Shown here: in pieces, positions 1 through 64,000 of the stretch
Layout of the letters: the number at the start of each line of letters is the position of its first letter
Position numbering within the stretch: position 1 is the first letter of the stretch
From: Eledone cirrhosa
Lineage: Eukaryota
Direction of reading: 5' to 3'
Length of the DNA stretch: 64,000 nucleotides
Assembly (NCBI GenBank): GCA_964016885.1
Contig: OZ024741.1
Location: forward strand, 106,206,001 to 106,270,000
Program-made: the position numbers and the translations under genes
Notes under the pieces: generated by a model
Database searches by the model: none
The model's input: the letters and a program-made list of their open reading frames with translations, nothing else
Told to the model about the DNA's origin: nothing

Positions 1-660
1 GGGGGGGTCGAAAATGATCCATTTTCCCCATACACTACGTATATTTTGGCATCTGCCAGCAGCTCCTTAGCTTTGCTTATATCTACTAGCAGATAGTCGA
101 GGGTTTTCCTTGCATTCTGGGCGGAGTCCTTTTCCTTGTTCATGTTGCTGTTGTTGTTATCATTGTTGTTGGTGTTGTTGTTGTTTTTGTTGTCTTTATT
201 GTTGCTGTTGTTGTTGTTTTTGTTGTCTTTATTGTTGCTGTTGTTGTCGTTGTTGTTGTTGTTGTTTTCAGGTTCTTGTATAGTTGTGGCTACATCAAGT
301 TGTTTGTCAGCAGGTGGAGAAAGTTCTACCTCTGGCTGACCTCTGCCTTTGGCATCTGCTGCTGTGACAGTGGCAGGGGGAAGCTGTGAGTTTAACTTCC
401 CTTTTCTTCCTTTGAATGTTGGTGAAGATGCTTCAGCCATTTTTATCAAAGTAGGATTTTTCGAAATTTTTCGAAAGATAAAATATTTTCACCAATATTT
501 CGCCTAAAGGCGTAGAATATTTTGAGAGATTGACCAGATCAAAAATTGATCTGGCAGTCCCTCTACAAAATGGTACAAAAATGAAAGTTTACAGTTAGGA
601 ATTTCTATGGAAATTTAGGCAGAACTTACCCAGCAAGTTTCACGCGTGTGTCCATCCCAG
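1..660 (-). mobile_element. Tx1/L1-clade LINE family A, 5' UTR and ORF1 N-terminus (continues left of the window)
   Basis: Near-identical to 20232-20893, whose ORF (20180-20683) aligns with ORF1 of the near-full-length element (SFAQTAGKTLDYLLVDISKAKELL vs SFADTVNKKQDFINLDISNARDML). The 5' end abuts (GATA)n. Confidence 0.75.
563..629 (-). other. Putative 67-nt spliceosomal intron in the Tx1 family A 5' UTR
   Basis: TGG|GTAAGT ... CCTAAC branch point ... TTTCATTTTTGTACCATTTTGTAG|. Same layout at 20797-20863 and in family B at 9402-9469. Confidence 0.65.
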
Positions 661-675
661 ATAGATAGATAGATA

Positions 676-750
676 GATATCTTTCTTTATTTGCCACAGG
701 GGCGTACAAAAATGGGACATTACAAGACGTAACGGCGGGGTTTTACATAA
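676..750 (-). mobile_element. Short Tx1 3'-terminal fragment
   Basis: Ends GCCCCTGTGGCAAATAAAGAAAG followed by (TATC)n, like the other Tx1 3' ends. Also at about 3556-3625, 20914-20985 and 23938-24005. Confidence 0.65.
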
Positions 751-957
751 AAATAACTTTAACATTAATAAATAACAATAAACTATATATAATAAAATAA
801 TAGATAGATAGATAGTTAGCTAGATTGACAAACAGACAGACAGAGACAGACAGACAGTTAGATAGAGAGGCAGATAGACAGACAGGCAGACAGACAGACA
901 GACAGATAGATACATAGACAAATAGACAGGGAGATAGATAGACAGATAGATAGATAT

Positions 958-3544: not shown

Positions 3545-3917
3545 TATAGATAGATATCTTTCTTTATTTGCCACAGGGGCGTACAAAATGGGGACATTAC
3601 AAGACCAATGGCGGGGTTTTAAATAAAAATAACTTTAACATTAATAAATAACAATAAACTATATATAATAAAATAATAGATAGATTTCTTTATTAGCCAC
3701 AAGGGCGCAACAAGAAAGGGGACAATACAAAGACATGCCGGGGATTTTACATACAGTCGTGTAAAAAATATAAAAACAAACAATTTCAACAATCGAAATC
3801 CCCAATAGGGGGAGGCGCCACAAATGGGTTGTTTAATACCCCGTCGATAGAACAACCCTCAACTCAAGGAGCGTGTTGTGCAAGTGCTCCTTTCTTCCTT
3901 TTGCTCTCTTCCTCAAC

Positions 3918-6900
3918 CTACAGGCTTATAAACAGAGAAGGCCCAATCACTCGGGCCATTTTCGCTTCATTCACCCACCTTTCAGTAAATTTACTGGGGT
4001 GCAGTGCCTCTCTCTCCACCCTGATTCTCCTTCTAAAGTGATACTTAAAGAATGGAATCAATTGTTGTCCGGAGAGAAAGGCATCTGTCCTCAGTCCTCT
4101 CAACCTCGTCCACCATATAACTTCTTTCACCATAGCCACCGTACAGAGGAAAACCGCCTCTCTTTCGTTTTTGAAAGAGTCTGGCGGTTTGATCCTTACT
4201 ATGGACTCGACAGTCAACTGTATTTGTCCCATACGCGACAGCAGTTGTTCTGCATAGTTCCACAGGTCGCTTACGCCCGGGCAGTCTACAATTGCGTGCA
4301 GAACTGTTTCAATGTCCTGCGCACATCTTGGACACGTCCTCTTGGAAGGATCTCTGCCAGGGCGTCCGTGCCTGTAGATCTTGTCACGAACCGGTAGAGC
4401 TCCTCGGTAGCACTGCCAGGCCAGGGACCTCTGGAAGTTGTCCATAGGTCCCGGGCGGAAAGTCCTACCAAACATACTGGTGAGCTCATCGTCTTCGACG
4501 CCCAGAGTCTCTCCGAGCACGTCGTCGCCCTTGTAACGTACAATCCCTCTATAGAATGTCGAAGTGGAGTCTCCACTGATTGCTGCGCCCGCTTGCCAGA
4601 GGACTGTGAGCGCCTGAGCGCATTCAATGTGCCAGGCGCCCATCGTTTTCGGTCTTTTCTTCACCCAGGACTGCAGCTCCGTTAGCGAGACGAGCTGTGG
4701 GAAAGCCTGTCTCACAAACGGTGCCCACACCGGTTGGGGGTCGGTGAGGAATACCTAGAGATGCCGCAGCCTCAGCGCATGTTTGCGCATCATCAGCCAC
4801 GGCATTCCCAGCCCTCCGTTGGAAGGGTGCTGACAGCAGACGGATCTGATCTCCTCACCAGCGGAGCCTGCTTCTTCCACAGAAACTGGAAGAGCATGCG
4901 TTCCATCTTGGCGAGGTGTTCACGGGGACAAGGCACGACAGTCAAGCGGTAGTAGATGACGGACGCTATGAAAGTGTTCGCCACCTCCGCTCGACCTTTC
5001 AATGACAGTTTGCACTCTGCCCACTTCTGAGTGAGTGCAAACACCTTGGCCGTGACCTCGTTCCAGTTTTTCTCCACCTGGAGGTCTGGACCGAACCAGA
5101 CCCCGAGCAATTTCACCGGTCCGTCCGTCCAGCGTCCAACGACGCTGTCGGATGTCATCGGTTTGCCTCTCCACGTACCGAGTTGCAAACCGACAGACTT
5201 GTCTGGGTTTAGTTTTGCTCCCGTCAGCGTTTCGTATTCTTTCAGTATGTTGCCGATCACCCCGATTTCCGAGGTGCTCGACACCATTACTGTCACGTCG
5301 TCGGCATAAGCCGACGCCGTTTTGCGCAGTCCCGGTTCTAGGGGGATGCCCTGCAACAGCTCCAATTTCCGCAGTAGTGGCTCTAGAGTCAATACATACA
5401 GAATGGAGGAGAGAGGGCATCCCTGTCGAATGGAACGCGTGATTGCGAACGGCTCCGATAGGTAGCCGTTCACCTTGACCCTCGAGCAGATGCTGGTGTG
5501 CATCGCCTCGATCCATCCTCTGAACACGGGACCGAAACCGGCCGCCTTGAGAACCGCTTCCAAGTATCGATGGTTGACCCTATCGAATGCCTTAGACTGA
5601 TCCAAGTTGATCAGAGCCCCACCGAAGCCGGGTTTACTACCCACCCTCTCTATGATGTATCGCATGAGGTGGAGGTTGTCGTGCATGGACCTGGTCGGGA
5701 TTGCACACGTTTGCGCTTTCCCTACCAGGTTCTCGACGACAAGCGCCAACCTCGTCGCTAGCACCTTGGCCAAAATCTTTAACTCTGTGTTGAGCAGAGT
5801 TATGGGCCTGAAGTTGTTAATTTCGTCCCCCTTGTTCTCGTCTTTCCTGATCAGCGTTACTACGCCCTTGCCTGCAGAACTGGGAATTCTCCCGTTCTGC
5901 TGCCAATTGCAGTAGACGGCTTCGAGGACGCCAGAGAACAAGTCCGGCATGCCTATGTAAAATTCGTAGGGTAGACCATCTAGACCGGGTGACTTGCGTT
6001 TCCCGCAGCGGCCCAGAGCGTCCCGTATCTCAGTGTCTGTGATCGGTCTTTCGCAGAACTCGGCGTCCGTGTTCGAGAGACGCGGCAGGCCGTCGAGGTA
6101 TGAACTAAAGTCCATTGCCCCGTTCGGCTCACCGTCGTTCCGCTCAAACAGTCGCGCAAAGTGCCGCTGAAAGGCCGCGCACATTTGCTTGGGGTCAAGT
6201 AGCACGCGTCCGTTTTGGTCTTTCAAAGACCGAATCGTGGACTTGTTGCCACTTTTTGCCTCCGCCACTCGGGCCCAGCTGACAGCTTTCGCTCCTTCGT
6301 TTCCTAGAGCACGTGTTTTGCTTCTGACCACGCAGCCTTCGTGTTTCGCATCGAAGAACTGGTCCAGTGCCGTTCTCGACGCTAACACTCTAGCCGCGTT
6401 GCCACTTCTAAGTGCCTCCTCTACCTTGGCTACTAGTTCTCTTTCTATTCTGTTTTTCTCTAAGGCTAACTCTCTGCTATACCCTATCGATTCTATTCTA
6501 ATTGCTTTCTTGAGAGAGTACCACCATCTATTGTTGACGATGGCTCCCGTTAACTGTTGCTTGACTAGTTTACTTATCCGTTCACTGTAAGCTTTACGTG
6601 CCGGCAACGACACGTTCAGCTTCCAGTATCCGGGACCCTGTCTATGTATTCTATCACGGTTGACTAAGCAGACGACTAACTTGTGATCTGAATAGGCAAC
6701 CATGTGCATTCGTGGACAGCTTAACATATCCTTGTCCCTTTCTCTAATGAAGAACCTATCTAAATACGATCTAGATGTCCCACTGCGGTTTACCCACGTC
6801 CACTGTGGTGCAGTCGGGAAATCCAGTCGATACCTATCGGCCAGTTGGAATTGGCCGATTAAAGTTTTGACGCTGTTGCACCCCGCTCTACTGGGACATG

Positions 6901-7369
6901 CTCCCACATAGTCCCATCGTGCATCTAGGATACCATTCCAGTCCCCCACTAAAAGTAAGGAGCGAGACGTTCCCAGAAAAGACTCTAGACGCTTAAAGAA
7001 GTCTGGCCGTGATTGCGATTGCCCGGTCGGGGCATAAACGGCCACCAGTCTGAAGGCTCCACCTCCGATACTGTTCACGTCTAGGACTACCAGTCTACCC
7101 TCCGGGTCCAAGTGTACTTGCTGTACTCCGACGTCCAGGTTCTTCCGAAACATAACAGCCACTCCACCTCCACCTCCTGGCTGACAGAGAGATGCGTAGA
7201 TCTCAAAGTCGTCGAAGATGGGGGTTAGTTGCTGCCTGTTGTGGATTCTGGACTCGGTGATGGCTATCACATCCATACTGTGTGACCTAAGGTCGTTTAA
7301 AAGTTGGCCCTGTTTCCAGGGCATCCCTAGGCCACGCACATTCACGGTTCCAACTCGTAAACCAGCCAT
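3918..7369 (-). pseudogene. Tx1 ORF2 (APE endonuclease, reverse transcriptase, C-terminal Zn finger), frameshifted
   Basis: Motifs NVRGL, VYAP, GDWN, SDH, KSPGLDG, FRPITLLN, DQSKAFDRV, RQGCPLS, AYADD and CPRC...HAIVDC. A 5-bp tandem duplication (GATCT twice, 4843-4852) breaks the frame. Confidence 0.92.
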
Positions 7370-7410
7370 GTTGGTGAAGAAAAGTTGGAGAAAAAGGACG
7401 AAAGGTGCAC

Positions 7411-9283
7411 TTACCTTTTCGTTTCCTGGAGATCGGGTTGTTCAATCTCCATTTGGGTGCTGGATGGGGTGTTGGGTGGGGTGGGGAAACCTTTCAACAG
7501 GACGCGGTTGATGGGTTTGTGGCAGGGGTTGCCCACGTCCTGTGAAAATTTAATTTTCAGGTCTTTATAGGTTTCCATAGAAACCCTTATAAGTTTAAGG
7601 TGTGGAGACGATTCTGCCTTGACGAAAGTTTTGCCCTCCGTCTCCACCTTGGGGTTTTGGGAGATGACCTCCATCAAACTCTTGTTGTTTGTGTTGATGT
7701 ATGCGTATTGTTGTTTGTGTTTTTGTTGTATTGTTTTTCATCTGGGAGTTTTCTTTTTATGGTGGGTGCTTGTGTTTGGGGTGGTGTTGGTGCTGGTTTT
7801 GCTGATAGGGGGGTGTTTGACTGTGGTGTTGTTTGTGTTGTTGTTTGTGTCTGTGGTTGTGTGTTGGTGTTGGTGATTGGAGTTTTGGGGGTTTTGTGGT
7901 GTCTCTTTTTTTGTTTTTGGGATTTCCGCGGTTCTCCCTCTTCTTCACTTAAAGAAGAAGCAGCAGCTTCATCCGTCGATGAATAATCATCGTCAGGTGT
8001 GTGGGGTAAGGGTATGTTGTGTGGTGGTGGTGGTGTTTCGGTATGTGTGTTTGTGGTAGTGTTTGATGGAGTGGGATGGAGTGGGGATGTGTTCTTCAGG
8101 GGTGTTGTCTCTGTTTTTTCTGTTGTTGTTGGTTGAGTGTCTGTTTGTTTTGGTGTGGTTGCTCGTTTCGTCTGTCGTTGTACTTGTGGTGGTGGTGGTG
8201 GTGGTTGTTTTGGTGTTGGTGTTGGTAATAGCGTTTTTTTTATGATGTTGCTGTTGTGTGTTTGTGGACAAGAGGCTTTTAGGTGAGATGTGCTACCACA
8301 GCGAAAGCAGTGAAATTTTCTTCCTTCTACCAAAATGTTTATTTTGTTGTTATTATCAATAACGACTCTTCCGGGTATTTTGGAGATTCTCTCCGGTTTC
8401 ATTTGCAACAGAATCTCCAAATCGGTGCCCGCCCACCTTTGTCGAATGGATTTTCGTATCGAAAGTATTATGTCTGTTTCTGGCTCTACGAAGCCAGCCA
8501 AGATCCACCAGATGTTAATGCTTGGAGGTATGTTTGTTATTTTTTTTTTTTGTGTCCTTTTCCCCATGTATGTAGGGAAAAAGGTGTATGCTTTTGACAC
8601 TATTGGTGTCACAGAGTTTTTTTGGGCCAGTGTCTCGCTTTTAAACAGTACGGAAACGCTTCCGTACTGTTTTCCTCGCTGGAGAAAATCGACATTTGCT
8701 AGAATCTCCTTGAAAGAATCTTCTATATCTGACTGGTTAACAAATGTCGGTTTTCTTGACGAATTTGACACAGTCCTAAAAGTGACTGATCGGCGGTTTG
8801 TGTCTTCCTTTATTTCAAGGGGTGAGTTAATTCTAAACCCACCTCTTTCTTCGAAAGTTACAAATTTTCTCCCTTGCTGGAGCATATCTCTTGCGTTGGA
8901 GATATCAAGATTTATAAAATCTTGTTTCTTGTTGACTGTGTCAGCAAAAGACATTTTCTTTTTTTTTGTGTGATGTTGTTGTTGATAATGATGTTATCGT
9001 TGTTGGAAATTGTATGTGTAGATGTATCTGTAGAGTTGTTGATGTCTTTTTCATGTGTATGTATGTCAATGGGTTTTTTTGCCGTGTTTTCCCGTGTGTT
9101 ATTGTCATTTTTCTCCGCTTCGGCGGTAGAAATTGTAACATTTTCAAATGTTGATATATTTTTTTCTTTTGTGACAGTATCTATGGCAACGTCCATAGCA
9201 GCAGAAGCAGATATAACGTTAATATCTGCCTCTTTCTCTCTCTTTTCACTATTAACGTTCTCCAGCGTTCTAGTGTTGCTCAA
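7411..9283 (-). pseudogene. Tx1 ORF1 (gag-like, CCHC zinc knuckle, low-complexity P/T/Q region), split at two A-runs
   Basis: ORFs 8912-9283, 7674-8954 and 7411-7677 join via single-base shifts at homopolymers (about 8960 and 7736). CFRCGSTSHLKASC knuckle present. Confidence 0.8.
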
Positions 9284-9401
9284 GTTTTTTTTACTTTGTA
9301 AAATTTGATATTTTAAGACAAACTTTTAAATAAAATTTTCGCCCCTACAGGGGCGAAAAATGGGATTACCACCCAGCTGACAATTCAGCTTGGGGGTTAA
9401 T

Positions 9402-9469
9402 CTACAAAGTGTTGTATTTTTTTCAAACAATTAGATCGGTTTTTGCATAGAAATTAACAAAAAACTTAC
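9402..9469 (-). other. Putative 68-nt spliceosomal intron in the Tx1 family B 5' UTR
   Basis: CCG|GTAAGT ... TCTAAT branch point ... CTTTGTAG|. Same position and length as the family A intron. Confidence 0.62.
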
Positions 9470-9529
9470 CGGCGATATTCCACACGTTAGACAGAAAGAT
9501 AGATAGATAGATAGATAAAATAATAGATA

Positions 9530-14555: not shown

Positions 14556-19878
<5,323 letters not shown>

Positions 19879-19962
19879 GTATATATATGTGTATAGAGAG
19901 AGAGAGAATAACATTAGAATTTAGCTTTGAACATAGCTGTATACAAATATGTATTTGAATTT

Positions 19963-20893
19963 TTTGTGGCCTTCTACCCATGCACGTAGGGTAGAAAGTG
20001 TATGCGGCGGATGTAATTGGTTTTATGGACAGTTTGACTGCTGTGTCCCTGTCCTTCATGAGAAAGGATAGACTCCCGTAGAGTCTATCCTTCTGAATGA
20101 ATATGATGTCTTTCATGACAGCTTTTAAAACCAGCTCTATCTCACTCTGTGATGGTTGAGCTGGTTTTTTGCTTTTGTTTCAGACTGTCCTAAACATGAC
20201 AGTGTTTAGGAGTCTCTGGCTTTTTAGTTCCGGGGGGGGGGTCGAAAATGATCCATTTTCCCCATACACTACGTATATTTTGGCATCTGCCAGTAGCTCC
20301 TTAGCTTTGCTTATATCTACTAGCAGATAGTCGAGGGTTTTCCCTGCAGTCTGGGCGAAGGAGTCCTTTTCCTTGTTCATGTTGCTGTTGTTGTTATCAT
20401 TGTTGTTGATGTTGTTGTTGTTTTTGTTGTCTTTATTGTTGCTGTTGTTGTTGTTTTTGTTGTCTTTATTGTTGCTGTTGTTGTCGTTGTTGTTGTTGTT
20501 TTCAGTTTCTTGTATAGTTGTGGCTACATCAAGTTGTCGGTCAGCAGGTGGAGAAAGTTCTACCTCTGGCTGACCTCTGCCTTTGGCATCTGCTGCTGTG
20601 ACAGTGGCAGGGGGAAGCTGTGAGTTTAACTTCCCTTTTCTTCCTTTGAATGTTGGTGAAGATGCTTCAGCCATTTTTATCAAAGTAGGATTTTTCGAAA
20701 TTTTTCGAAAGATAAAATTTTTTCACCACTATTTCGCCTAAAGGCGTAGAATATTTTGAGAGACTGACCAGATCAAAATTTGATCTGGCAGTCCCTCTAC
20801 AAAATGGTACAAAAATGAAAGTTTACAGTTAGGAATTTCTATAGAAATTTAGGCAGAACTTACCCAGCAAGTTTCACGCGTGTGTCCATCCCA
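19963..20893 (-). mobile_element. Tx1 family A 5' fragment (5' UTR plus partial ORF1), cut at the duplication junction
   Basis: ORFs 20180-20683 and part of 19688-20116 are homologous to family B ORF1 (AYTFYPTCMGRRPQK vs AYTFFPTYMGKRTQK). Confidence 0.8.
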
Positions 20894-24269: not shown

Positions 24270-24872
24270 CCATCATCACCATCACCATCCTCCTCATCAT
24301 CACCATCACCGTCGTTATTATCACCATCATTACCACCCTTATCATCACCACTACCACCACCATTATCATCATCATCACCATCACTATCACCATCACTGTC
24401 ATTACCGCTGCTATCATCACCATCACCATCATAGTTACCATTGACGTCATCAATAATTACCACAATAATAAACAGAATGCTAACAATAACAACAACAACA
24501 AAAGGAAAGGTTGAATTTTTGTATTCTATATTCCATATTTTTCCAGTGAGTTATGACAATATGTTAATGTAAGGTTAACAGCAATCTACACACACATACA
24601 CACATATATATATATACACACACATACAGACACATACACAACCATACATATACACTCACATACACACATACACATACACACATACACATATATACATATA
24701 AACACACACACACAGTGGAAGTTACACTAGTCATGTGTTTTGTTCCATAGTGGTGTAGAAATGTCATCTTAGAGGCTCTCTTTTTTGGAATATATATATA
24801 TATATACATATATACACACACACATATACATATACATATACATACACACACACACATATATATATGCATGCA

Positions 24873-27929
<3,057 letters not shown>

Positions 27930-32209: not shown

Positions 32210-35200
32210 ATCATCATCATCATCAGGTTTAGCGTCCGTGTTCCATGCTTGCATGGGTTTGGACGGGGGTTTTCCCACTTGAGGCAAGAGTGGTTGTCTT
32301 GCTCGCATAGGACTGTCTGGCGGGTTTTCTACAGTTGGATGCCCTTCCTAACACCAACCACATTTACAGTGTGGGGCTGGGAGGTTTTTACCGTGTTGCC
32401 TACACGGCCACATTACAGCGTGGACTGTCTGGCGGGTTTTCTACAGCTGGATGCCCTTCCTAACACCAACCACATTTACAGTGTGGGGCTGGGAGGTTTT
32501 TACCGTGTTGCCTACACGGCCACATTTACAACGTGGACTGTGTGTTTTTTTGTCGTGACACCTACACAATCTCATTTGTTTCGGCCTGGATGTTGTGGGA
32601 CCAACATAACTTTACATTGAAAGGGGCGGTGTGGATGGGGTGGAGGTGGTGGGACGGGGGGGGGTTGATAGAGATGCCTACTGACTGTAGTAGGTTTTTA
32701 CTTTGTATTTAGGTAAGGCGGGTCTTCTCTATTACTGAGTACCGCCAAAGGTCTCGGTCCAGTGACATTGTCTTGGAGAGGTGTAAGCGTGTGAGGTCGG
32801 AATTTATCAGCTCGTCCCATGTTTTTCTGGGTCTGCCTACTCCGTGGCTACCGTCTATCTTTATTGCCCTGCACTTTGTTATACAGCTGTCGTCTTTCAT
32901 GCGCATCACGTGACCGTACCAACGTAGCCTTCTCTCGAGTAAACAACATCTGATCCCTCTTATTTCTAATTTTTTCCTTAGTTCGTTTATGCTTTGCCGT
33001 TCACGTATATTACTATTGCACATCCAGCGGAGCATGCAAGCTTCGTTCCTCTCTAGTCTGCGTATATCCTCTGCACACAATGCCCAGGTCTCACTGCCAT
33101 GCAGCATTGCTGTTCGTATGCAGGCATCGTATAACCTGCCTTTCATTTTTAGGGAGAACCCTCTAGCGGCTAATAGTGGTATAAGCTCTCTGAACTTTTT
33201 CCATCCAGTTCTGACTCTAGCTACTGTACTTTCAGAGCACCCTCCCCCACTGCTGATTTTGTCACCCAGATAACGGAAGCTGTCCACTATTTCTATAGAA
33301 CCCTCTGCGCAGTTGAAGGAGCTAGTATTTTGTGGGCACTTGCTGCTACTTATTGCACCAGAGCACCGGCCACATGTAAAATCTATGTTCTTAGTTAGCT
33401 TACCTGTGATCCCACTACATCTTTTATGCACCCATACTTTGCATTTGGGACATAAAATGGAGTTTCTACCTACGCCTTTCCTACACACCGAGCATGGCCA
33501 TTTCCCAGATGGGACTGCCACCTTATTTTCTTTCCTACAAACTAGAACTTTAGTCTTAGCCAGGTTAATTTTAAGGCCTTTTGATTCTAAGCCGTGCTTC
33601 CATGTTTGGAATTTCTTCTCTAGTTCGGTCATTGATTCAGCTATGAGCGTTAGATCATCTGCGTATAGGAGTTCCCATGGGCAGCCGGTCTTGAACTCCT
33701 CTGTTATAGCCTGAAGGGCAATAATAAATAGTAGGGGGCTAAGAACAGAGCCCTGATGGACACCAACTTTTACGCTAAACTCTTCACTATATTCGTTGTT
33801 AATTCTAACCTTACTGACTATTTCTTTATACATGGCTTGTATAGCTCTCACAAGCCATTCGTCAACACCTAGTTTTCTAAGAGACCACCAGATAATGGAA
33901 CGGGGGACTCTGTCGAAGGCTTTCTCCAAGTCGACGAAAGCTAAGTATAGGGGTTTACTTTTAGCAAGGTACTTCTCCTGTAGTTGTCGTACAATGAAAA
34001 GAGCGTCTGTGGTACTTTTGCCTGACACAAATCCGAACTGCATTTCATCTAGATCAATTCTCTCTCTGATTAGTTGCGCTATTACTTTTTCCGTGACCTT
34101 CATGACCTGGTCGATTAATTTAATGCCTCTATAGTTACTCCTATCTAGGGCATCTCCTTTTCCCTTATAGCAGTTAACGATGATGCTGCTACGCCAGTCC
34201 TTCGGAACAACCCCATTCTGTACGACTTGGTTAACTATCCGGGTGACCATGGTGTGTCCCACCGAACCAGATGCCTTCAGCATCTCAGCAACTATTTCCG
34301 AAGGCCCAGCCACCTTACCCATCTTCATATCTTTGATTGCCTTGCTTATTGTACTACCCTGGACTAACACTGCTGGTCCCTCTATTGGGTCGATGTGGGG
34401 GAGACTGTCTTTCTCCCATTTGTTCTCCTCATTTAGAAGCCTTTCGTAGTGACACTTCCAAGCTACCTTCTTATCAGCGTCGGTGATGGCAAGTATGCCA
34501 TCATCGTTAAGTACACACTTCTCCCCGTCAATATCACGGTTTTCCTTGACACATTGCCTGGCAATCCTGAACACCTCACGTTTTTGGTCCTCACGTTGTA
34601 GAACATGCTTGAACTTTCTTTCCTCTGCTTCCCTTCTTGCGAAGTACACTTGTCTCCTAGCTTCCCTCCTGGCCACCTGATAGTCTTCTCTACTTCCCCC
34701 ATCCCGCCATACTTTCCAAGCCTGCTTTTTGGCCTTAATTGACTCCTCCACCTTACTGTTCCACCACCATGTTACTCTCCTCCTACCTACAGGCCTGCTC
34801 CAGCCACAGACTTCGTCTGCCGCCGTCAGCAGGTTTGCTCTCAGGAATTCTCACTGTTCCTCTATATTATACGACTCTAATTTCTCTTCCTTACTGTCGA
34901 AAGCGTCAAGTAATATGCTTTGAAATTTATTTCTGGCTATGGGGTCCTTTAGCTTCCATATTTTTCTCCTGAGGATAGTCCTCTTCCGCTGTCTAGTACG
35001 TCTCGTCCTGACTATGAGGTCGCTAATTATCAGTCTATGTTGGGAGGTGAATTCTTCATGGGGGAGGGATTTAGTGTTAACAACAGACACTCTGTCACGT
35101 CTTCTGGTAAGGATATAATCTACCTGGCTTGTGTGTTCCCCCGATCTATAGGTGATCAAGTGATTGTCTCGTTTTTTGAAGTTAGTGTTACAGATAGTTA

Positions 35201-36065
35201 AGTTATTTGCGTCGCAGAATTCCAGGATTCTGGAGCCTTCCTCATTTCTAGTACCGAACCCATAGCCTCCATGGATTCTGTCATAGCCGTCACAATGTTG
35301 TCCAACGTGACCATTTAGGTCGCCTGCAATAACTATATAGTCACTGTCGGTTATTTGGGAGGTAGCGAGCATCAGTGTCTCGTAGAATCTGTCTTTTATA
35401 GCACCGGGCAGTCCGGATTGTGGTGCGTACGCAGATATTACTGTCACCGTAGTTTTATTGAGGACAAGTCTTATTTTAATTATTCTGTCGTTCACTCTAT
35501 TTACGTCTATTATCTTATCTGCCCACTTTTCTGCTACCATGATTCCTACCCCACCCAACCCATTGTCATTTCCCACCCAGAAAAGCTTATAGCATCGTTC
35601 TTTACCCACGATGAATGTAGCCGACCCTCCCCTCCACCTGGTCTCTTGAATACAACAAACATCGACCTCCTTACGTTCAAGCATTTCTACAACCTCGTTA
35701 GAGCGACCCTTTAAGGTGCCTACATTCATGGTACCAACTCTGAAGTTTTGGATTGCGTTTGGAGGGTGGGAGCGGTGGGGCGCGGGGGGGGATGGGGTTA
35801 TGTTAGCCATCCTGGGCCGAAACAAGGCGGAGTGCTTGCATTCTCGTCCACGAGGTGAATTTGTCTTTATCTTTGGCATTGTCGCTGAGCGTCCACATTT
35901 TTCTCTCTTCAACTCTCCAGAATTCCGTAGTCCATCCATCATATCGAAAAGCAACCAGTTAAGCGATAGTATGGGCCTCTGACTTATGATTGGTCCACGT
36001 AATAATGGTGGTGCGTGGGGGCGGGTCGGAGGGATGATGGGTTGTTAGCGAGAATGTAAGGTTTA
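32210..36065 (-). mobile_element. RTE LINE, essentially full length, one nonsense codon
   Basis: ORFs 34851-35954 (EN) and 32709-34751 (RT-PHD) share one frame, split by TGA where the 25001 copy has TGG (W). (GAT)n tail at 32210-32225. Confidence 0.93.
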
Positions 36066-36264: not shown

Positions 36265-39200
36265 TTAGAAAGTGAGGTTTTTTTTACAAAATGAAAAATA
36301 ACCGAGGTGTCCTACACGAGTGGAAGTATAAAAAAAAAGAGATGAAATCGAAAATGCAACTGAAGTCTTATTTTTTTTAAAAATATATATATTTATTTGG
36401 TTCCTTTACCAGTTTCGCAGTTCTTCTGCTTTTCAAAAGGTGAGTTGAGATGGAGGGTCTGTGGTTTTTCTCACATCTGGTTGGTCTCTGAATGTTACTT
36501 GTTTTATATGGAAAAAGTGGCTCGAAAGCCAGGTTTTTCGAGAAGTAATTTGATTGGTTTGTCAATAATTATAATAAATTTCGCGCCAGTTCGCGTTACA
36601 ATAGTTCTTCAAATAAGAGAGGGGGGTTGTCACAGGTTGTTTTTTCATATATGAGTGTTTGAATTTCTTTTTACTTGAAAAAAGGAGGCTCACGAAGGCT
36701 TTTTTTTTGGTTGGTTATAAATGAAATTTGGCTGTCACGTGAACAAGTTTTCATTACATTTTTGCGCCCTTATTTGGAAAACTATTCTGTAGTCTTTATA
36801 GTGAATGTTATGACAATGGAGAGATAGTGGTCAAGGGAAAAGGGATTGGGAGAAATGTTCTGGTTCAGTGAATATGGCCAGCTGTCAGAGTTCAGGTGTC
36901 AGAGTTCAGATTTTCTATTGAGACTGAAGATATGTGTTTATTTGTGTGCTTGTGTGTGTGTATGTATGTGTGTGTGTGTGTGTGTATGTGTGTATTGGAA
37001 GATGATTCTATTAGTAGAGATGGGGGAGGGAGTTGTGTGTGTGTGTATATGGGTGTTATGTGTGTGTGTGCGAGTATGTTAAGATGGAGAGAATATATAT
37101 TTTGTGTGTGTGTATATATATATGTGTGTAGGAAAGTGGTTCTATTAGTAGAAATGGGTTGTAGGTGTGGGGGTTGTTATGTGTGTGTATGGGTGTTATG
37201 TGTGTGGGAGTATGGTTAGCATGTTAAGATGAAGAGAATATATATATATATATATATTGTATGTGTGTGTAGGAAAGTGATTCCTTTAGTAGGAATATTT
37301 TTGAATGAACATATTTTCCTGACTTTTTCGTGTTTGCTGTTGTGTTGCCAGTGCAAACGTATGTTAAGGTTTATTTAGTTCGGGTTTTTATTTTCTAAAG
37401 TAGAAGGTGTTATGTGTGTGTGTGTATGTCATATTGTGGTGTTGACATAATGTATATTAAACCTTATTTAATGTTGGTCTATATTTTTGAATAAACATAT
37501 TTTCCTTATTTATTCGCATTTGTTCTGTTGTATTGTTAGCGCAAAGGTAAAATGGGAAGACTTGGAATTTGGGTGTCTTATTACTTGCGCAAATGTCTAG
37601 ATGTGCACTTAGTGGTATCTGTCTCGTGGTTGGATCTCGTAATTGTTGGCGATGAACTGTCATTCTGTTTCTGAGTGTGAGTTTAGTTTGTCCTATATAA
37701 TCTTCATTGCATCCTTTACATTTAATGGCATAAATTAGATTTTTTGATGAGCAAGTGAAGTGATTTTTTACAGTAAAATTTTGTCCTGATTTAAATGTAT
37801 ACGTGTTGCCTTCAATGAGGTGAGTGCAGGTTCCACAATTAGAGCGACCACATTTTTTGATACTTGGTTGTGGGTTTGTGGTAGGTAATTTGGCATTGGT
37901 GAGTAATGTTTTCAGTGATTTTGGTTGTCTTTTGCTTTTGATTATTTTGTGCGTTTCAAGGGCTTTTTTCATTCTTGGGTTTTGTTTTAGTAGTGGGATG
38001 TTATTGTGAATAGTGTTGTAAGCTTCCGCATTTCTTGGGTTGTGTGTTGAGATATATGGTAGAATATTGGACGTACCTTGAATTTGTTTCTGTTTCCGTA
38101 ATTCATCAATGCCTATTGCTTTAGCCCTTTCTATTCCATTATTTATTAGTAATAGTGGGTACTCTCTCTCAAGTAGAATTTCCTTTAATTCTTGAAGTCT
38201 TTTATTTCGCGTTTCATAATTGGAGACAATTGTGCAAATTCTTCTTGCTAGGTTAAAAGGAATGTTCGTCTTCGTGTGCTTTGGATGGTTGGAGGTGAAT
38301 AGCAGATATTGTTTGGAATCTGTTGGTTTGTAGTGTATGTCAGTTTCGATATTTGTGTCTTTTTTTGTGATTAAGATGTCCAGAAATGGGAGTTGATCTT
38401 GGCTGTATTCCATTGTGAATTGGATGTGGTTATTGATGCCGTTTATTAAGTTTTTGAAATCCTTCAGTTGGTCGAGTGTGTGGGACCAAAGAATGAGGCA
38501 ATCATCCAAGTAGCGTTTCCAATTCTCTGATAAATATTTGTGGAAGTTCAATCCGTATTTTGATTTGGACTGTTCATATATCTGGACTTCTAAGTATGCC
38601 ATGACTAAGTTGGCATAAGTTGGAGCGGCTTTTGTGCCCATCGCAGTCCCCGATATTTGCTTGTAAGTATTGCCATCGAAATCAAAAAAGTTGTTCTGTA
38701 GGATGAATTTTAATCCCTCGGTGATGAAGCTTTTTTCTATTCTGTCAGGTATCTCATTTGGGATATTTCTCTAGCCAGAATCCTATTGCTTCTATTCCGT
38801 ATTGGTGTGGGATCGTTGTGTAGAGATTCACTACATCGAAAGACACAATAATAGTGTCGTTGTTGACATGTTTGGGGAGGTGGTTTAAGAGGTCCAGATC
38901 GTCTCTTGCAAGGCTTGGTATGTGTTTCAGTATTGGTTTCAGTAGTATGTCTATAAAGTTGCTCAATCTGTGTGTTTCACATTGTGGGCCCGCTACAATT
39001 GGTCTTAATTTAAGGTCTGTGGGGTATTGTGTGTTCACGCAGGCTGAGGTGGATTGTTTACAGGCATCGTTGATTATTTTACATTTGTGGATCTTCGGAA
39101 GTCCGTAAAGTTTGCTGGTTTTGTATTCAAAATTTGTTAAATAATCGCGTTCCTTTTTAGTTAGGTCTTCCTGGTATCGATAAATCAGTGTGTTTAATTT

Positions 39201-40595
39201 GGTCATTATTTTTGATTGCTGGTAGTTTTTTACTCTTTCATAGTAATTAGTATTTTGTAAGAGAGAGAACATAGAATTTTTATATTTTTCGGCCTCCATA
39301 ATGACAACAGTACTTCCCTTGTCCGCTTCCTTAATTACAATGTCCGTATTGTTTTTTAGTTCATGGATAATCTCCCATTCCCTTCGACTTGTGTTGGGTT
39401 TGGGTTTAGGTTGCGGTAGTTCATGGTATGGGAAGGTAGCTATGTGGTCACAAAATTTGTCCAGAACTCTGTTTCTACCTTTTGTTGGGTTGTAGCTGCT
39501 TTTATTCTGTACAATTGATTCGTCGTTATTCTCCTTGTCAAAGAATTCCTCTGTGAGACGTAATTTTCTACAGAAGTGTGAGATATCGTCATTTATCTCG
39601 TTGGGGTTAGGATATTGTGGTGTTGGTGTGAATTTCAGACCTTTGGAGAGAATTTTTACTTGTTGGGCTGAGAGGTTTGTATTTGAAATGTTAATTATTT
39701 TCGGTTTTTCAAAATCAGTTTGTGCCACCGGGTGTCGTGAGTCCTGTAGCCTTGGTCTAAAAAATGATTTTTCTGGAATGTTTTTTCATTGGTATTATTA
39801 TATCTAATGGTATTTCCCCTGTTGTTGTGTGGTCTTGTATAGAAGTTTCGGACGTATTGAGGTTCGGTTTGTTGATAGTCCGGGTTGTAGATTTGGTTCC
39901 TTTGTGTGGGTTGGGATCTATGGTTTTGGAACAGGCTCTGTGTGGGCAGGGGTCTACGGTTTTGGAATAGGTTTTGTGTGGGTTGTGATCTGCAGATCAG
40001 GTCCTGCCTTGTGTTCGGGGATCTTTGGTTTTTGTTAGTAGGGTTATAGTTTTGTCTATGGTTTCTATCGTTATAGTTTTGCTGGGGGTATGTTGGACAT
40101 TTTGTTACTTTTTTTGTTATTTGTTGTGCATGTGGTGTGTGAGTTTTGGTTTGTTTTAAAAATGGGTTACCTGTATGTTGTTCATTTTTGAAGTCCATTT
40201 CGTAGTTGTTGAACCAGGTGGCGTTTTTTTCCCATCGCTGGAGGGATGTGAGTTCTTCATCCTCACAGTTTTCTTTCCAAAGTTTTAGGGTTTTTTTGTA
40301 GAGTAGGCCTTCAGAGTGCTTTGAGATTTCTGTGTTCATCTGTTGGTCGAGTGACTTGAAATTTTCTTCGTTGGAGTTGGCTCTTAATCGCAACAGTTCT
40401 ATTTCTGTTTTAAATTTTTCCCTAAGTCTTTGTTGGTTTTCTGGTTCATTCGGGATGGGTTTTATTTGGAGTTTTTTGGGGAGGATGATTGGGGTAGAGT
40501 TTAGCCACTTTTCATATATGTCTGCCTTGCCATTATTTTTTAGGAGATTCCAAAGGGCGAATTTGCGGGCTGTGAGCTTTTGAGTCCATATGTTG

Positions 40596-62551: not shown

Positions 62552-64000
62552 ATGTTTTCTTTATTAACCACAAGGGTTTACATAAAGTAGACATTAAGGA
62601 CAGTACAGGACAATACAGGACGGTACAAATGGGCATTTCTGCGTGTAAAAAAAACAGAGGATGTAATAAAATAACAAAGAAAAATTCCCCAATAGGGGGG
62701 AGACTTCCGAGGGACATTTGTGGAGAAAGCCCATTAAAAGACCACAGTGACCCTGACCACCAGGGCAAGTGCCCTCTCCCAGTTTTCCACCTTTAATTTA
62801 CAGACACATACTCAGAGAAGGCCCATTCATTCGGGCCATACTTGCTTCTCTCACCCATCTTTCAACAAAATGCTGGGAAGAGAGCACTTCCCTCTCTACC
62901 CTGATTTTCCTTTTCAAATGAAATTTGAAAAAGTTAATCAGGGTATCACCGAAGAGGTAAGTGCTCGTCTTCAGCTCTTTCAAACGTGTCCACCATACTA
63001 TCTCTTTCGCCATAGCCACCAGACAGATAAAAACTGCCTGCCCTTCCCGGCTAAAAGAAGAGGGCGGGGCAATCCTCACGATGGACTCAGCTGATAGCTG
63101 GATCCGTCCTACACGTGACAGCAGGTGTTCGACATAAACCCACAAGTCAGCAATGCTCGGACACTGGACGAGTGCGTGCAGGACGGTTTCGTCGCCCTGC
63201 ACGCATCTCGGACATGCCCGGCTGACGGCACCTCCGTGCCTGTAGAGTTTATCCCGAACTGCCAAAGCTCCCCGGTAGCACTGCCAGGCCAGGGATTTCT
63301 GGAAGTTGTCCATAGGCCTCGGCCCGAAAGTCCTTCCGAAGAGATTGGCTAGTTGATTTTCGTCGATGCCTAGAGTTTCTCCAAGTACGTCGTCGCTCTT
63401 CCCCTCCACTAATCCCCTATAGAACGCCAAGGTTTCCACCGATCACATTGCCCGATTGGTCGAGGGCTGTGAGCGCCTGATGACATTCCAGTCTCCAAGC
63501 GCTCCCTCTCGGTCTTCGCTTGACCCAGGACTGCAGCTCCGTCAAGGAGACGAGCTGGGGAAAAACGCATCTAGCAAACGGCGACCACACCTGATCACCG
63601 TCGAGGAAGAGGTGGAGATGTCGTAGCCTGAGCGCGTGTCTGCGCATCATCAGCCACGGCATGCCCAGCCCTCCACGTAGCGGGTGTTGACAGCAGATGG
63701 ACCGCCTGACCATCGGAGCGCGTCCCTTCCACAAGAAGCGAAAGAGCAAACGCTCCAGCGCAGTCAGGCGGGGCTTAGGACAAGGTACGACGGTCAGGCG
63801 GTAGTAGATGACGGACGCGATGTACGCGTTAGCCACCTCCGCTCGACCTTTCAGGGATAGCTTCCTCTCGGCCCATTTCTGGGTGAGAGAAGCTACCCTG
63901 CTTGTCACCTCGTCCCAGTTTTTGTCCGTCTGGAGGTCTGGACCGAACCAGACCCCTAGCAATTTAACCGGTCCGTCCGTCCAGCGCCCGACGACGCTGT
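62552..64000 (-). mobile_element. Tx1 family E (RT thumb, C-terminus, 3' UTR) inserted at (TTC)n in a DPH7 intron
   Basis: ORFs 63417-63962 and 62798-63439 are homologous to family B ORF2; 3' end is TAATAAAGAAAACA+(TTC)n. Confidence 0.9.

Follow-up and report, generated by a model that had tools for sequence, protein, structure and literature searches.

Elements that are copied through RNA normally lose their introns. The window analysed here, a 64,000-nucleotide stretch of the Eledone cirrhosa genome, contains retrotransposons whose 5' untranslated regions (UTRs) carry what looks like a complete short intron, and the question is why such a stretch persists and what it may do. We favour, with moderate confidence, the reading that it is a selected 5'-UTR intron gated by a hairpin, which would recruit the spliceosome for expression, and that the RNA that is copied keeps the predicted intron. 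The element at the start of the window belongs to a family that we call A (all family labels are our own) and has the following features:

661..680, minus strand: (ATCT)n microsatellite target, also the tail of an upstream element (sequence reading)
630..659, minus strand: predicted exon 1 of family A, 30 nt (sequence)
653-646, minus strand: DPE-like GGACACAC, an inferred promoter motif in predicted exon 1 (RGACGTGY motif, from the accessible part of PMC2377424)
563..629, minus strand: intron-like stretch of family A, 67 nt (donor GTAAGT at 629-624, acceptor TTTGTAG ending at 563)
inside 563..629, minus strand: branch candidates CTAAC (A at 595) and TTCAT (A at 582) (motif)
524..563, minus strand: hairpin 1 of family A, whose base pairs the G of the acceptor (predicted fold)
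494..521, minus strand: hairpin 2 of family A, core CGCC/GGCG at 512-501 (predicted fold)
1..440, minus strand: ORF1 start of family A copy 1, ATG at 440, continuing beyond the window edge (ORF reading)
20797..20863, minus strand: duplicate of the intron-like stretch, within copy 19947-20893

An earlier note on this locus had described a 67-nt GT..AG stretch with GTAAGT, CCTAAC and TTTGTAG about 30 nt from the 5' end, followed by two hairpins and ORF1. We confirm the stretch at 629-563 and 20863-20797 on the minus strand. It begins 30 nt after the (ATCT)n run and is followed by hairpin 1 (563-524), hairpin 2 (521-494) and ORF1 (ATG at 440), in the order described. The duplicate at 20797-20863 is also present, and copy 19947-20893 is 3'-truncated with a stop codon in ORF1. 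The two window copies share a common flank and are 3'-truncated at ~950 nt, so they are one segmental duplication and not independent insertions. A second family, B, is represented by a full-length element:

3676..9498, minus strand: full-length family B element, ORF1 and ORF2 frameshifted in this copy (sequence)
9402..9469, minus strand: intron-like stretch of family B, 68 nt, from GTAAGT to the first acceptor AG1 (GT at 9469, AG at 9402)
9364..9402, minus strand: hairpin 1 of family B, with a second branch motif TTAAC (A at 9397) and a second acceptor AG2 (G at 9377)
9336..9359, minus strand: hairpin 2 of family B (predicted fold)
7409..7417, minus strand: second conserved donor AAG/GTAAGT at the ORF1 end, overlapping the ORF1 stop, 45 nt before the ORF2 ATG
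3918..7369, minus strand: ORF2 of family B, with AP endonuclease, reverse transcriptase and zf-RVT (domain matches)

The family B element in the window is 98.7% identical to an intact genomic copy, and its ORF2 ends in TAG/GT after a pyrimidine-rich stretch, a candidate distal acceptor. Family B has the same layout as family A, as the earlier note had observed; the two are not independent inventions, their 5' UTRs being colinear homologues.

By their sequence traits the elements belong to the L1 superfamily of non-LTR retrotransposons. ORF2 contains AP endonuclease, reverse transcriptase and C-terminal zinc-binding domains (PF03372, PF00078 and PF13966), its best solved match is L1 ORF2p (E 7e-48), and its closest named relative, at 63%, is from Argonauta hians. 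ORF1 has a CX2CX4HX4C knuckle, read from the sequence, and no Pfam match. The elements also show 5' truncations and AATAAA plus (ATCT)n tails and have no LTRs. Identity of ORF2 between representatives is 63-92%, some of the sequences compared being decayed copies. The GIY-YIG endonuclease, telomerase-like reverse transcriptase and pseudo-LTRs that define Penelope-like elements were not found, ORF2 being of the AP-endonuclease L1 type, and the likeness to Penelope may be confined to how the 5' UTR works. In family A, (ATCT)n-like sequence precedes each of the 30 loci. Such a preference for a microsatellite target agrees with the Tx1 clade as PMC4494074 portrays it, and membership in it is plausible; the ORF2 tree contains no named Tx1 elements, its outgroups being unnamed sequences and one Argonauta protein. 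A search of metagenome contigs found no relatives.

Several features of the wider group were observed alongside. The ORF2 trees place the 5'-UTR types on mixed ORF2 backgrounds, with the same type on different ORF2 lineages (loci L094-L097 and L107-L110), which suggests 5'-end swapping or recombination between families. By insertion into each other's tails, families F and X have built up head-to-tail arrays spaced at 5.7-5.8 kb (loci L119/L120 and L134/L135). The young family F (511 copies by pattern; L163, L106) has ATA instead of ATG at the homologous ORF2 start, and its first methionine lies ~33 codons in, inside the endonuclease domain, which suggests non-AUG initiation, frameshifting or another route. 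Family P is young and divergent, with a weak 5' donor and a strong ORF1-end donor (loci L171, L200 and L209-L233; a 3' part lies at window 62553-64000, minus strand); its target is (ATT)n, not (ATCT)n, and (ATT)n precedes it in 13 of 13 cases among the matches listed. A 5'-end fragment comprising exon 1, the intron-like stretch and the start of hairpin 1 has been amplified in a tandem repeat of ~0.9-1.3 kb at L235 (G000:C1:211902000-211911999). Other retroelements occupy 15282-19375, 24864-27383, 32709-35942 and 37457-39785 of the window; they include a Penelope-like element with a GIY-YIG domain and LINE copies with a weak PHD-finger match, which we take to be RTE-like.

Since elements of this group nest in each other's tails, we took 60 long genome regions with nested elements as a source of 5' ends that were not picked by motif. 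These regions yielded 29 complete 5' ends in 14 families, and the layout is canonical in 13 families and weak in family P. A loose search pattern that combined the microsatellite with the donor and acceptor had 939 matches, some of them overlapping, and its reversed control had 1. The alignment of the 5' UTRs is nearly gap-free for ~175 nt, at a mean column identity of 49%, and shows two architectures. In the early-donor families (A, A', C, D, B, B2, B', E, H and K) the donor lies near +30, and the acceptor AG1 lies at the base of hairpin 1, 67-70 nt from the donor, in all 11 representatives. In the late-donor families (F, G, J, M, N and X) the +30 donor is missing and the donor lies near +60 to +80; hairpin 1 has a YTRAC at its 5' base, and its 3' arm contains a YAG (AG2) at a distance of 59-63 nt from that donor. 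AG1 is absent in five of the six. The earlier note had missed this other acceptor, which in six families appears to be an AG on the 3' side of the hairpin 1 stem, the putative branch point lying at the stem base. AG2 of family B is homologous to it, the B group and K having both acceptors, and the A group has lost AG2 and the second branch motif and kept hairpin 1. From the joined positions of donor and AG in the two architectures we infer that donor and acceptor shifted jointly by ~30 nt at nearly constant length. In a masked 5'-UTR tree the A and B groups come together with a support of 100; the tree gives no direction for the shift, J, X and K being placed with support of 35-77.

A donor with a YAG 55-75 nt downstream is present on the sense strand of all 17 representatives, which are related and perhaps amount to five or six independent lineages, at an observed distance of 59-70 nt; the antisense strand gives 0 of 17 and shuffled sequences 0-8% (400 shuffles each). 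Nine of the 17 came from the motif search or the original finding, with family P outside the test. The other eight (F, G, H, J, K, M, N and X) were found as nested neighbours with no use of the motif, and the donor and YAG are present in eight of eight. The donor hexamer has an identity of 0.84 and 1.0 in two groups, versus 0.49 and 0.58 for the intron interior, so that the putative splice signals appear conserved across diverged families while the interior drifts. Variants stay within the consensus (donors GTAAGT, GTGAGT and GTAGGT; branch motifs CTAAC, TTAAC and TTGAC; acceptors CAG and TAG), and subfamilies of family X alternate between GTAAGT and GTGAGT. A GTRAGT-type donor with a YAG at intron-like spacing, as expected of a U2-type intron, is thus present throughout, weakly in family P, whose 5' donor is just AAAG/GTTTGT with an AAG 65 nt on, which counts against the reading we favour. 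A literature search for the minimal intron length of octopods found no value.

The branch point is less uniform. Donor, YAG and a YTRAY branch motif occur together in 12 of the 17 representatives, that is, in six of six late-donor families versus 6 of 11 early-donor representatives; the spacing of donor and acceptor that the earlier note had looked to is thus kept in further families, and the branch motif is kept in part. In ten representatives AG2 lies 20 nt from the branch A. In the early-donor families there is no fixed branch point, and 5 of 11 lack YTRAY. The CCTAAC motif, which the earlier note had listed for the stretch, is present in the window copies and is not stable elsewhere: the site reads CTAAC, TTAAC, TTGAC or CAAAC in family A subfamilies, and it is absent from families A', C and D. 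CAAAC is found in a large family A subfamily and counts against a fixed branch point there. Conservation is better for a yUnAy that stands 19 nt before the AG (TTCAT, A at 582) than for CCTAAC.

Hairpin 1 is predicted to cover the acceptor. Compared with 200 shuffles, the hairpin region folds with z = -5.6 in family A and -7.2 in its duplicate, and with z = -6.0 in family B against its shuffles. Most family A copies read CCAGGTCAA (a G-U pair), unlike the CCAGATCAA of the window. Hairpin 1 covaries across families, in support of the earlier note's reading: in the 11 aligned families outside A its upper stem is 91% paired and both sides have changed in three of six pairs, a count that excludes the misaligned family F and that is of a kind inflated by relatedness. 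AG2 itself has the same two letters in all 11, although other pairs of the stem covary. Of the AG that the note had placed in the base of hairpin 1, the G is paired in the predicted fold and the A is not; the acceptor G is paired in 14 of 14 predicted folds (unpaired probability at most 0.2), whichever AG is used. Since A, C and D kept hairpin 1 after the loss of AG2 and the second branch motif, the hairpin probably has a role of its own. Rfam models gave no match near the gathering score in window 330-760 and five loci, which disfavours a known ribozyme or structured RNA family, and an HDV-like ribozyme fold was ruled out by eye as its CGAA is paired.

Copies with and without the intron-like stretch were counted by exact-anchor searches of the 3.0-Gb genome. 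We found 115 intact copies in family A, 85 in B, 511 in F, 270 in C and 754 in X, and no intron-less copy in any of them, the lone exception in family C being a small duplication with the intron-like stretch intact. The total is 1,735 versus 0 (upper bound ~0.17%), a number that includes some tandem or segmental duplicates and comes from anchors that miss decayed copies of both kinds. Genome pattern searches also found no copies spliced to AG2 in the B group or in family G (at least 40 copies), and none spliced from the family F 5' donor to any acceptor. A join across the family B stretch was found in none of three genomic-looking contig sets that cover it; a fourth set does not cover the stretch, so that these contigs have no bearing on splicing. 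For human L1, the accessible text of PMC5860796 gives 116 spliced copies (SpIREs) among 6,609 full-length ones, or 1.8%. At that rate ~31 spliced copies would be predicted among our 1,735. The genomic copies thus all appear to come from unspliced RNA, as the earlier note had proposed. The same count backs the unspliced template and weakens the idea of abundant splicing, and, lying well below the rate in L1, it counts against our best explanation. LINEs mainly copy the RNA that encoded their own ORF2 protein. Given this cis preference, the ORF2-making RNA would be almost entirely unspliced, and any spliced pool would be small or would not make ORF2. Selection against dead ends alone cannot account for the zero, because dead copies would remain visible.

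Taken in this light, the favoured mechanism would run as follows. The 59-70-nt intron-like module likely recruits the spliceosome through U1 and U2 binding and would thereby aid export or translation, a benefit suggested by analogy with Penelope, in which deletion of the intron points to such an aid. Hairpin 1 would hide the predicted-paired acceptor and likely slow splicing, so that some spliced RNA may form, and the RNA that makes ORF2 and is copied would keep the intron.

The strongest competitor concerns donors that splice seldom or never. At the end of ORF1 there is a second conserved donor, which the earlier note had missed: G/GTRRGT occurs 22-45 nt before the ORF2 start at 49 of 53 ORF1-ORF2 junctions, family P included. 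It takes the forms GTAAGT, GTGAGT and GTAGGT and stands in three phases relative to ORF1, which rules out a mere stop codon. When the 263-316 GT sites of an element are ranked by their match to U1, this donor comes first or shares first place in 10 of 15 elements. No conserved acceptor was found near it at the 53 junctions, and donors here may therefore act without splicing. Both donors could then be landing pads that bind U1 snRNP, with the acceptor locked for good and splicing essentially never completed; their role would be to prevent premature polyadenylation of an A-rich transcript, or to raise transcription and favour export. AATAAA or ATTAAA hexamers do lie upstream of ORF2 in every element examined, and there are no spliced copies from either donor. 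However, this leaves unexplained why the acceptor moves jointly with the donor at a constant 59-70 nt, and why the 20-nt branch-to-AG spacing and an invariant AG persist in a covarying stem. We regard it as unlikely, though a serious contender.

The ORF2 end raises another candidate, balanced splicing as in retroviruses, in which ORF1 would be an internal exon, bounded by the 5' intron and the second donor, and ORF2 would be spliced out as one large intron with its stop codon as the 3' end. Splicing would yield an mRNA with ORF1 alone, and RNA left unspliced would make ORF2 and serve as the template; the zero intron-less copies would be accounted for because spliced RNA would lack ORF2 in cis. 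The ORF2 stop is TAG in 12 of 14 elements, with GT next in 11, a pyrimidine-rich stretch before it and purine-rich sequence after it, so that the stop could serve as a distant acceptor for the second donor, which is conserved whatever the ORF1 phase. On the other side, the genome holds no joins from the ORF1 end: family F has 0 versus 379 intact copies, and the A'/C/D/N group gave 8 matches joined elsewhere, all point or small indel variants, versus 1,494 intact. Family P ends its ORF2 in TAA, the ORF2 end has no clear branch motif, and its pyrimidine tract is also conserved coding sequence. No ORF1 homologues that could reveal spliced C-termini were found. We hold this reading to be quite improbable. 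A spliced subgenomic ORF2 mRNA was set aside as a general feature, an AG before the ORF2 ATG being found just in the J/K/A-type spacer.

A bolder combination, in which this LINE clade uses retrovirus-style balanced splicing, the hairpin-gated intron and the ORF1-end donor switch the fate of one transcript, and the intron slid ~30 nt while keeping its length and gate, we consider improbable.

An RGACGTGY-like motif occurs at 13 of 19 5' ends by pattern match and, at window 653-646 (minus strand) and its homologues, lies 5-17 nt from the element 5' end; by analogy with the spacing of the Drosophila DPE, transcription may start inside the upstream (ATCT)n target. That promoter and RNA-structure elements (this DPE-like motif, and hairpins bound by the elements' own proteins) mimic an intron in AT-rich sequence is highly improbable: the motif, the absence of spliced copies and the survival of hairpin 1 in A, C and D without the second branch motif and AG2 would fit, but the donor sits at two places ~30 nt apart, which is unfit for a spacing-bound core promoter element, the variants match the U1, U2 and U2AF consensus and not one protein site, and the shuffle and antisense controls are negative.

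The closest precedent for the hairpin-gated intron that we favour is the 5'-UTR intron of Penelope, by analogy. According to the accessible part of PMC2377424, Penelope of Drosophila virilis has a 75-nt 5'-UTR intron 46 bp after its start and an internal TATA-less promoter with RGACGTGY near it, and the intron is needed after transcription for reporter expression. In this group, of which Chlamys-3_cRei is another case, the donor and acceptor are conserved between diverged elements and the intron is retained through retrotransposition, as far as the parts of PMC2377424 and PMC8557442 used here describe. The present LINEs likewise have a short 5'-UTR intron-like module near an RGACGTGY-like motif, with a conserved donor and acceptor, retained in copies. 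Penelope is however a separate class, with a GIY-YIG endonuclease and pseudo-LTRs, and splicing is demonstrated there, whereas in the present AP-endonuclease L1-type LINEs it is predicted from sequence signals. These LINEs have a predicted acceptor hairpin and a second donor, neither of which is described in the accessible text of the two Penelope accounts. Human L1, of the same superfamily, has splice sites in its promoter-bearing 5' UTR, and its splicing inhibits retrotransposition (PMC5860796, in part); in the present LINEs, by contrast, the signals appear to be under selection and have turned over without a change in length, and there are 0 spliced copies among 1,735. Kibi and Koshi of the Tx1 clade are also two-ORF AP-endonuclease elements targeting a microsatellite, (TC)n or (TTC)n rather than the (ATCT)n or, for family P, (ATT)n seen here, and the accessible part of PMC4494074 mentions no intron in Tx1 elements. 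Our search of the full-text literature turned up no L1 or Tx1 LINE described as retaining a conserved 5'-UTR intron; most subscription papers, Repbase annotations and supplements lay outside that search, so a prior mention is possible. Copia makes a gag subgenomic RNA, and retroviruses have a leader in which a hairpin contains the major splice donor; both are LTR elements whose spliced RNAs are proven. They resemble the present LINEs in the position of their strong donors, one close to the 5' end and one where a gag-like ORF ends, and in using unspliced RNA as the template. Structure covers the donor there, whereas predicted structure covers the acceptor here.

Intron retention through retrotransposition has been treated as a hallmark of Penelope-like elements, its significance being called unknown (PMC8557442, in part). 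If our reading is true, a conserved and selected intron in an ordinary target-primed LINE would mean that retention needs no exotic transposition mechanism, and it would bear on how LINEs set the ratio of ORF1 to ORF2. The two architectures are a possible case of intron sliding. With young, near-identical families, intact ORF2 frames and two natural architectures at hand, the question would be testable in standard retrotransposition assays.
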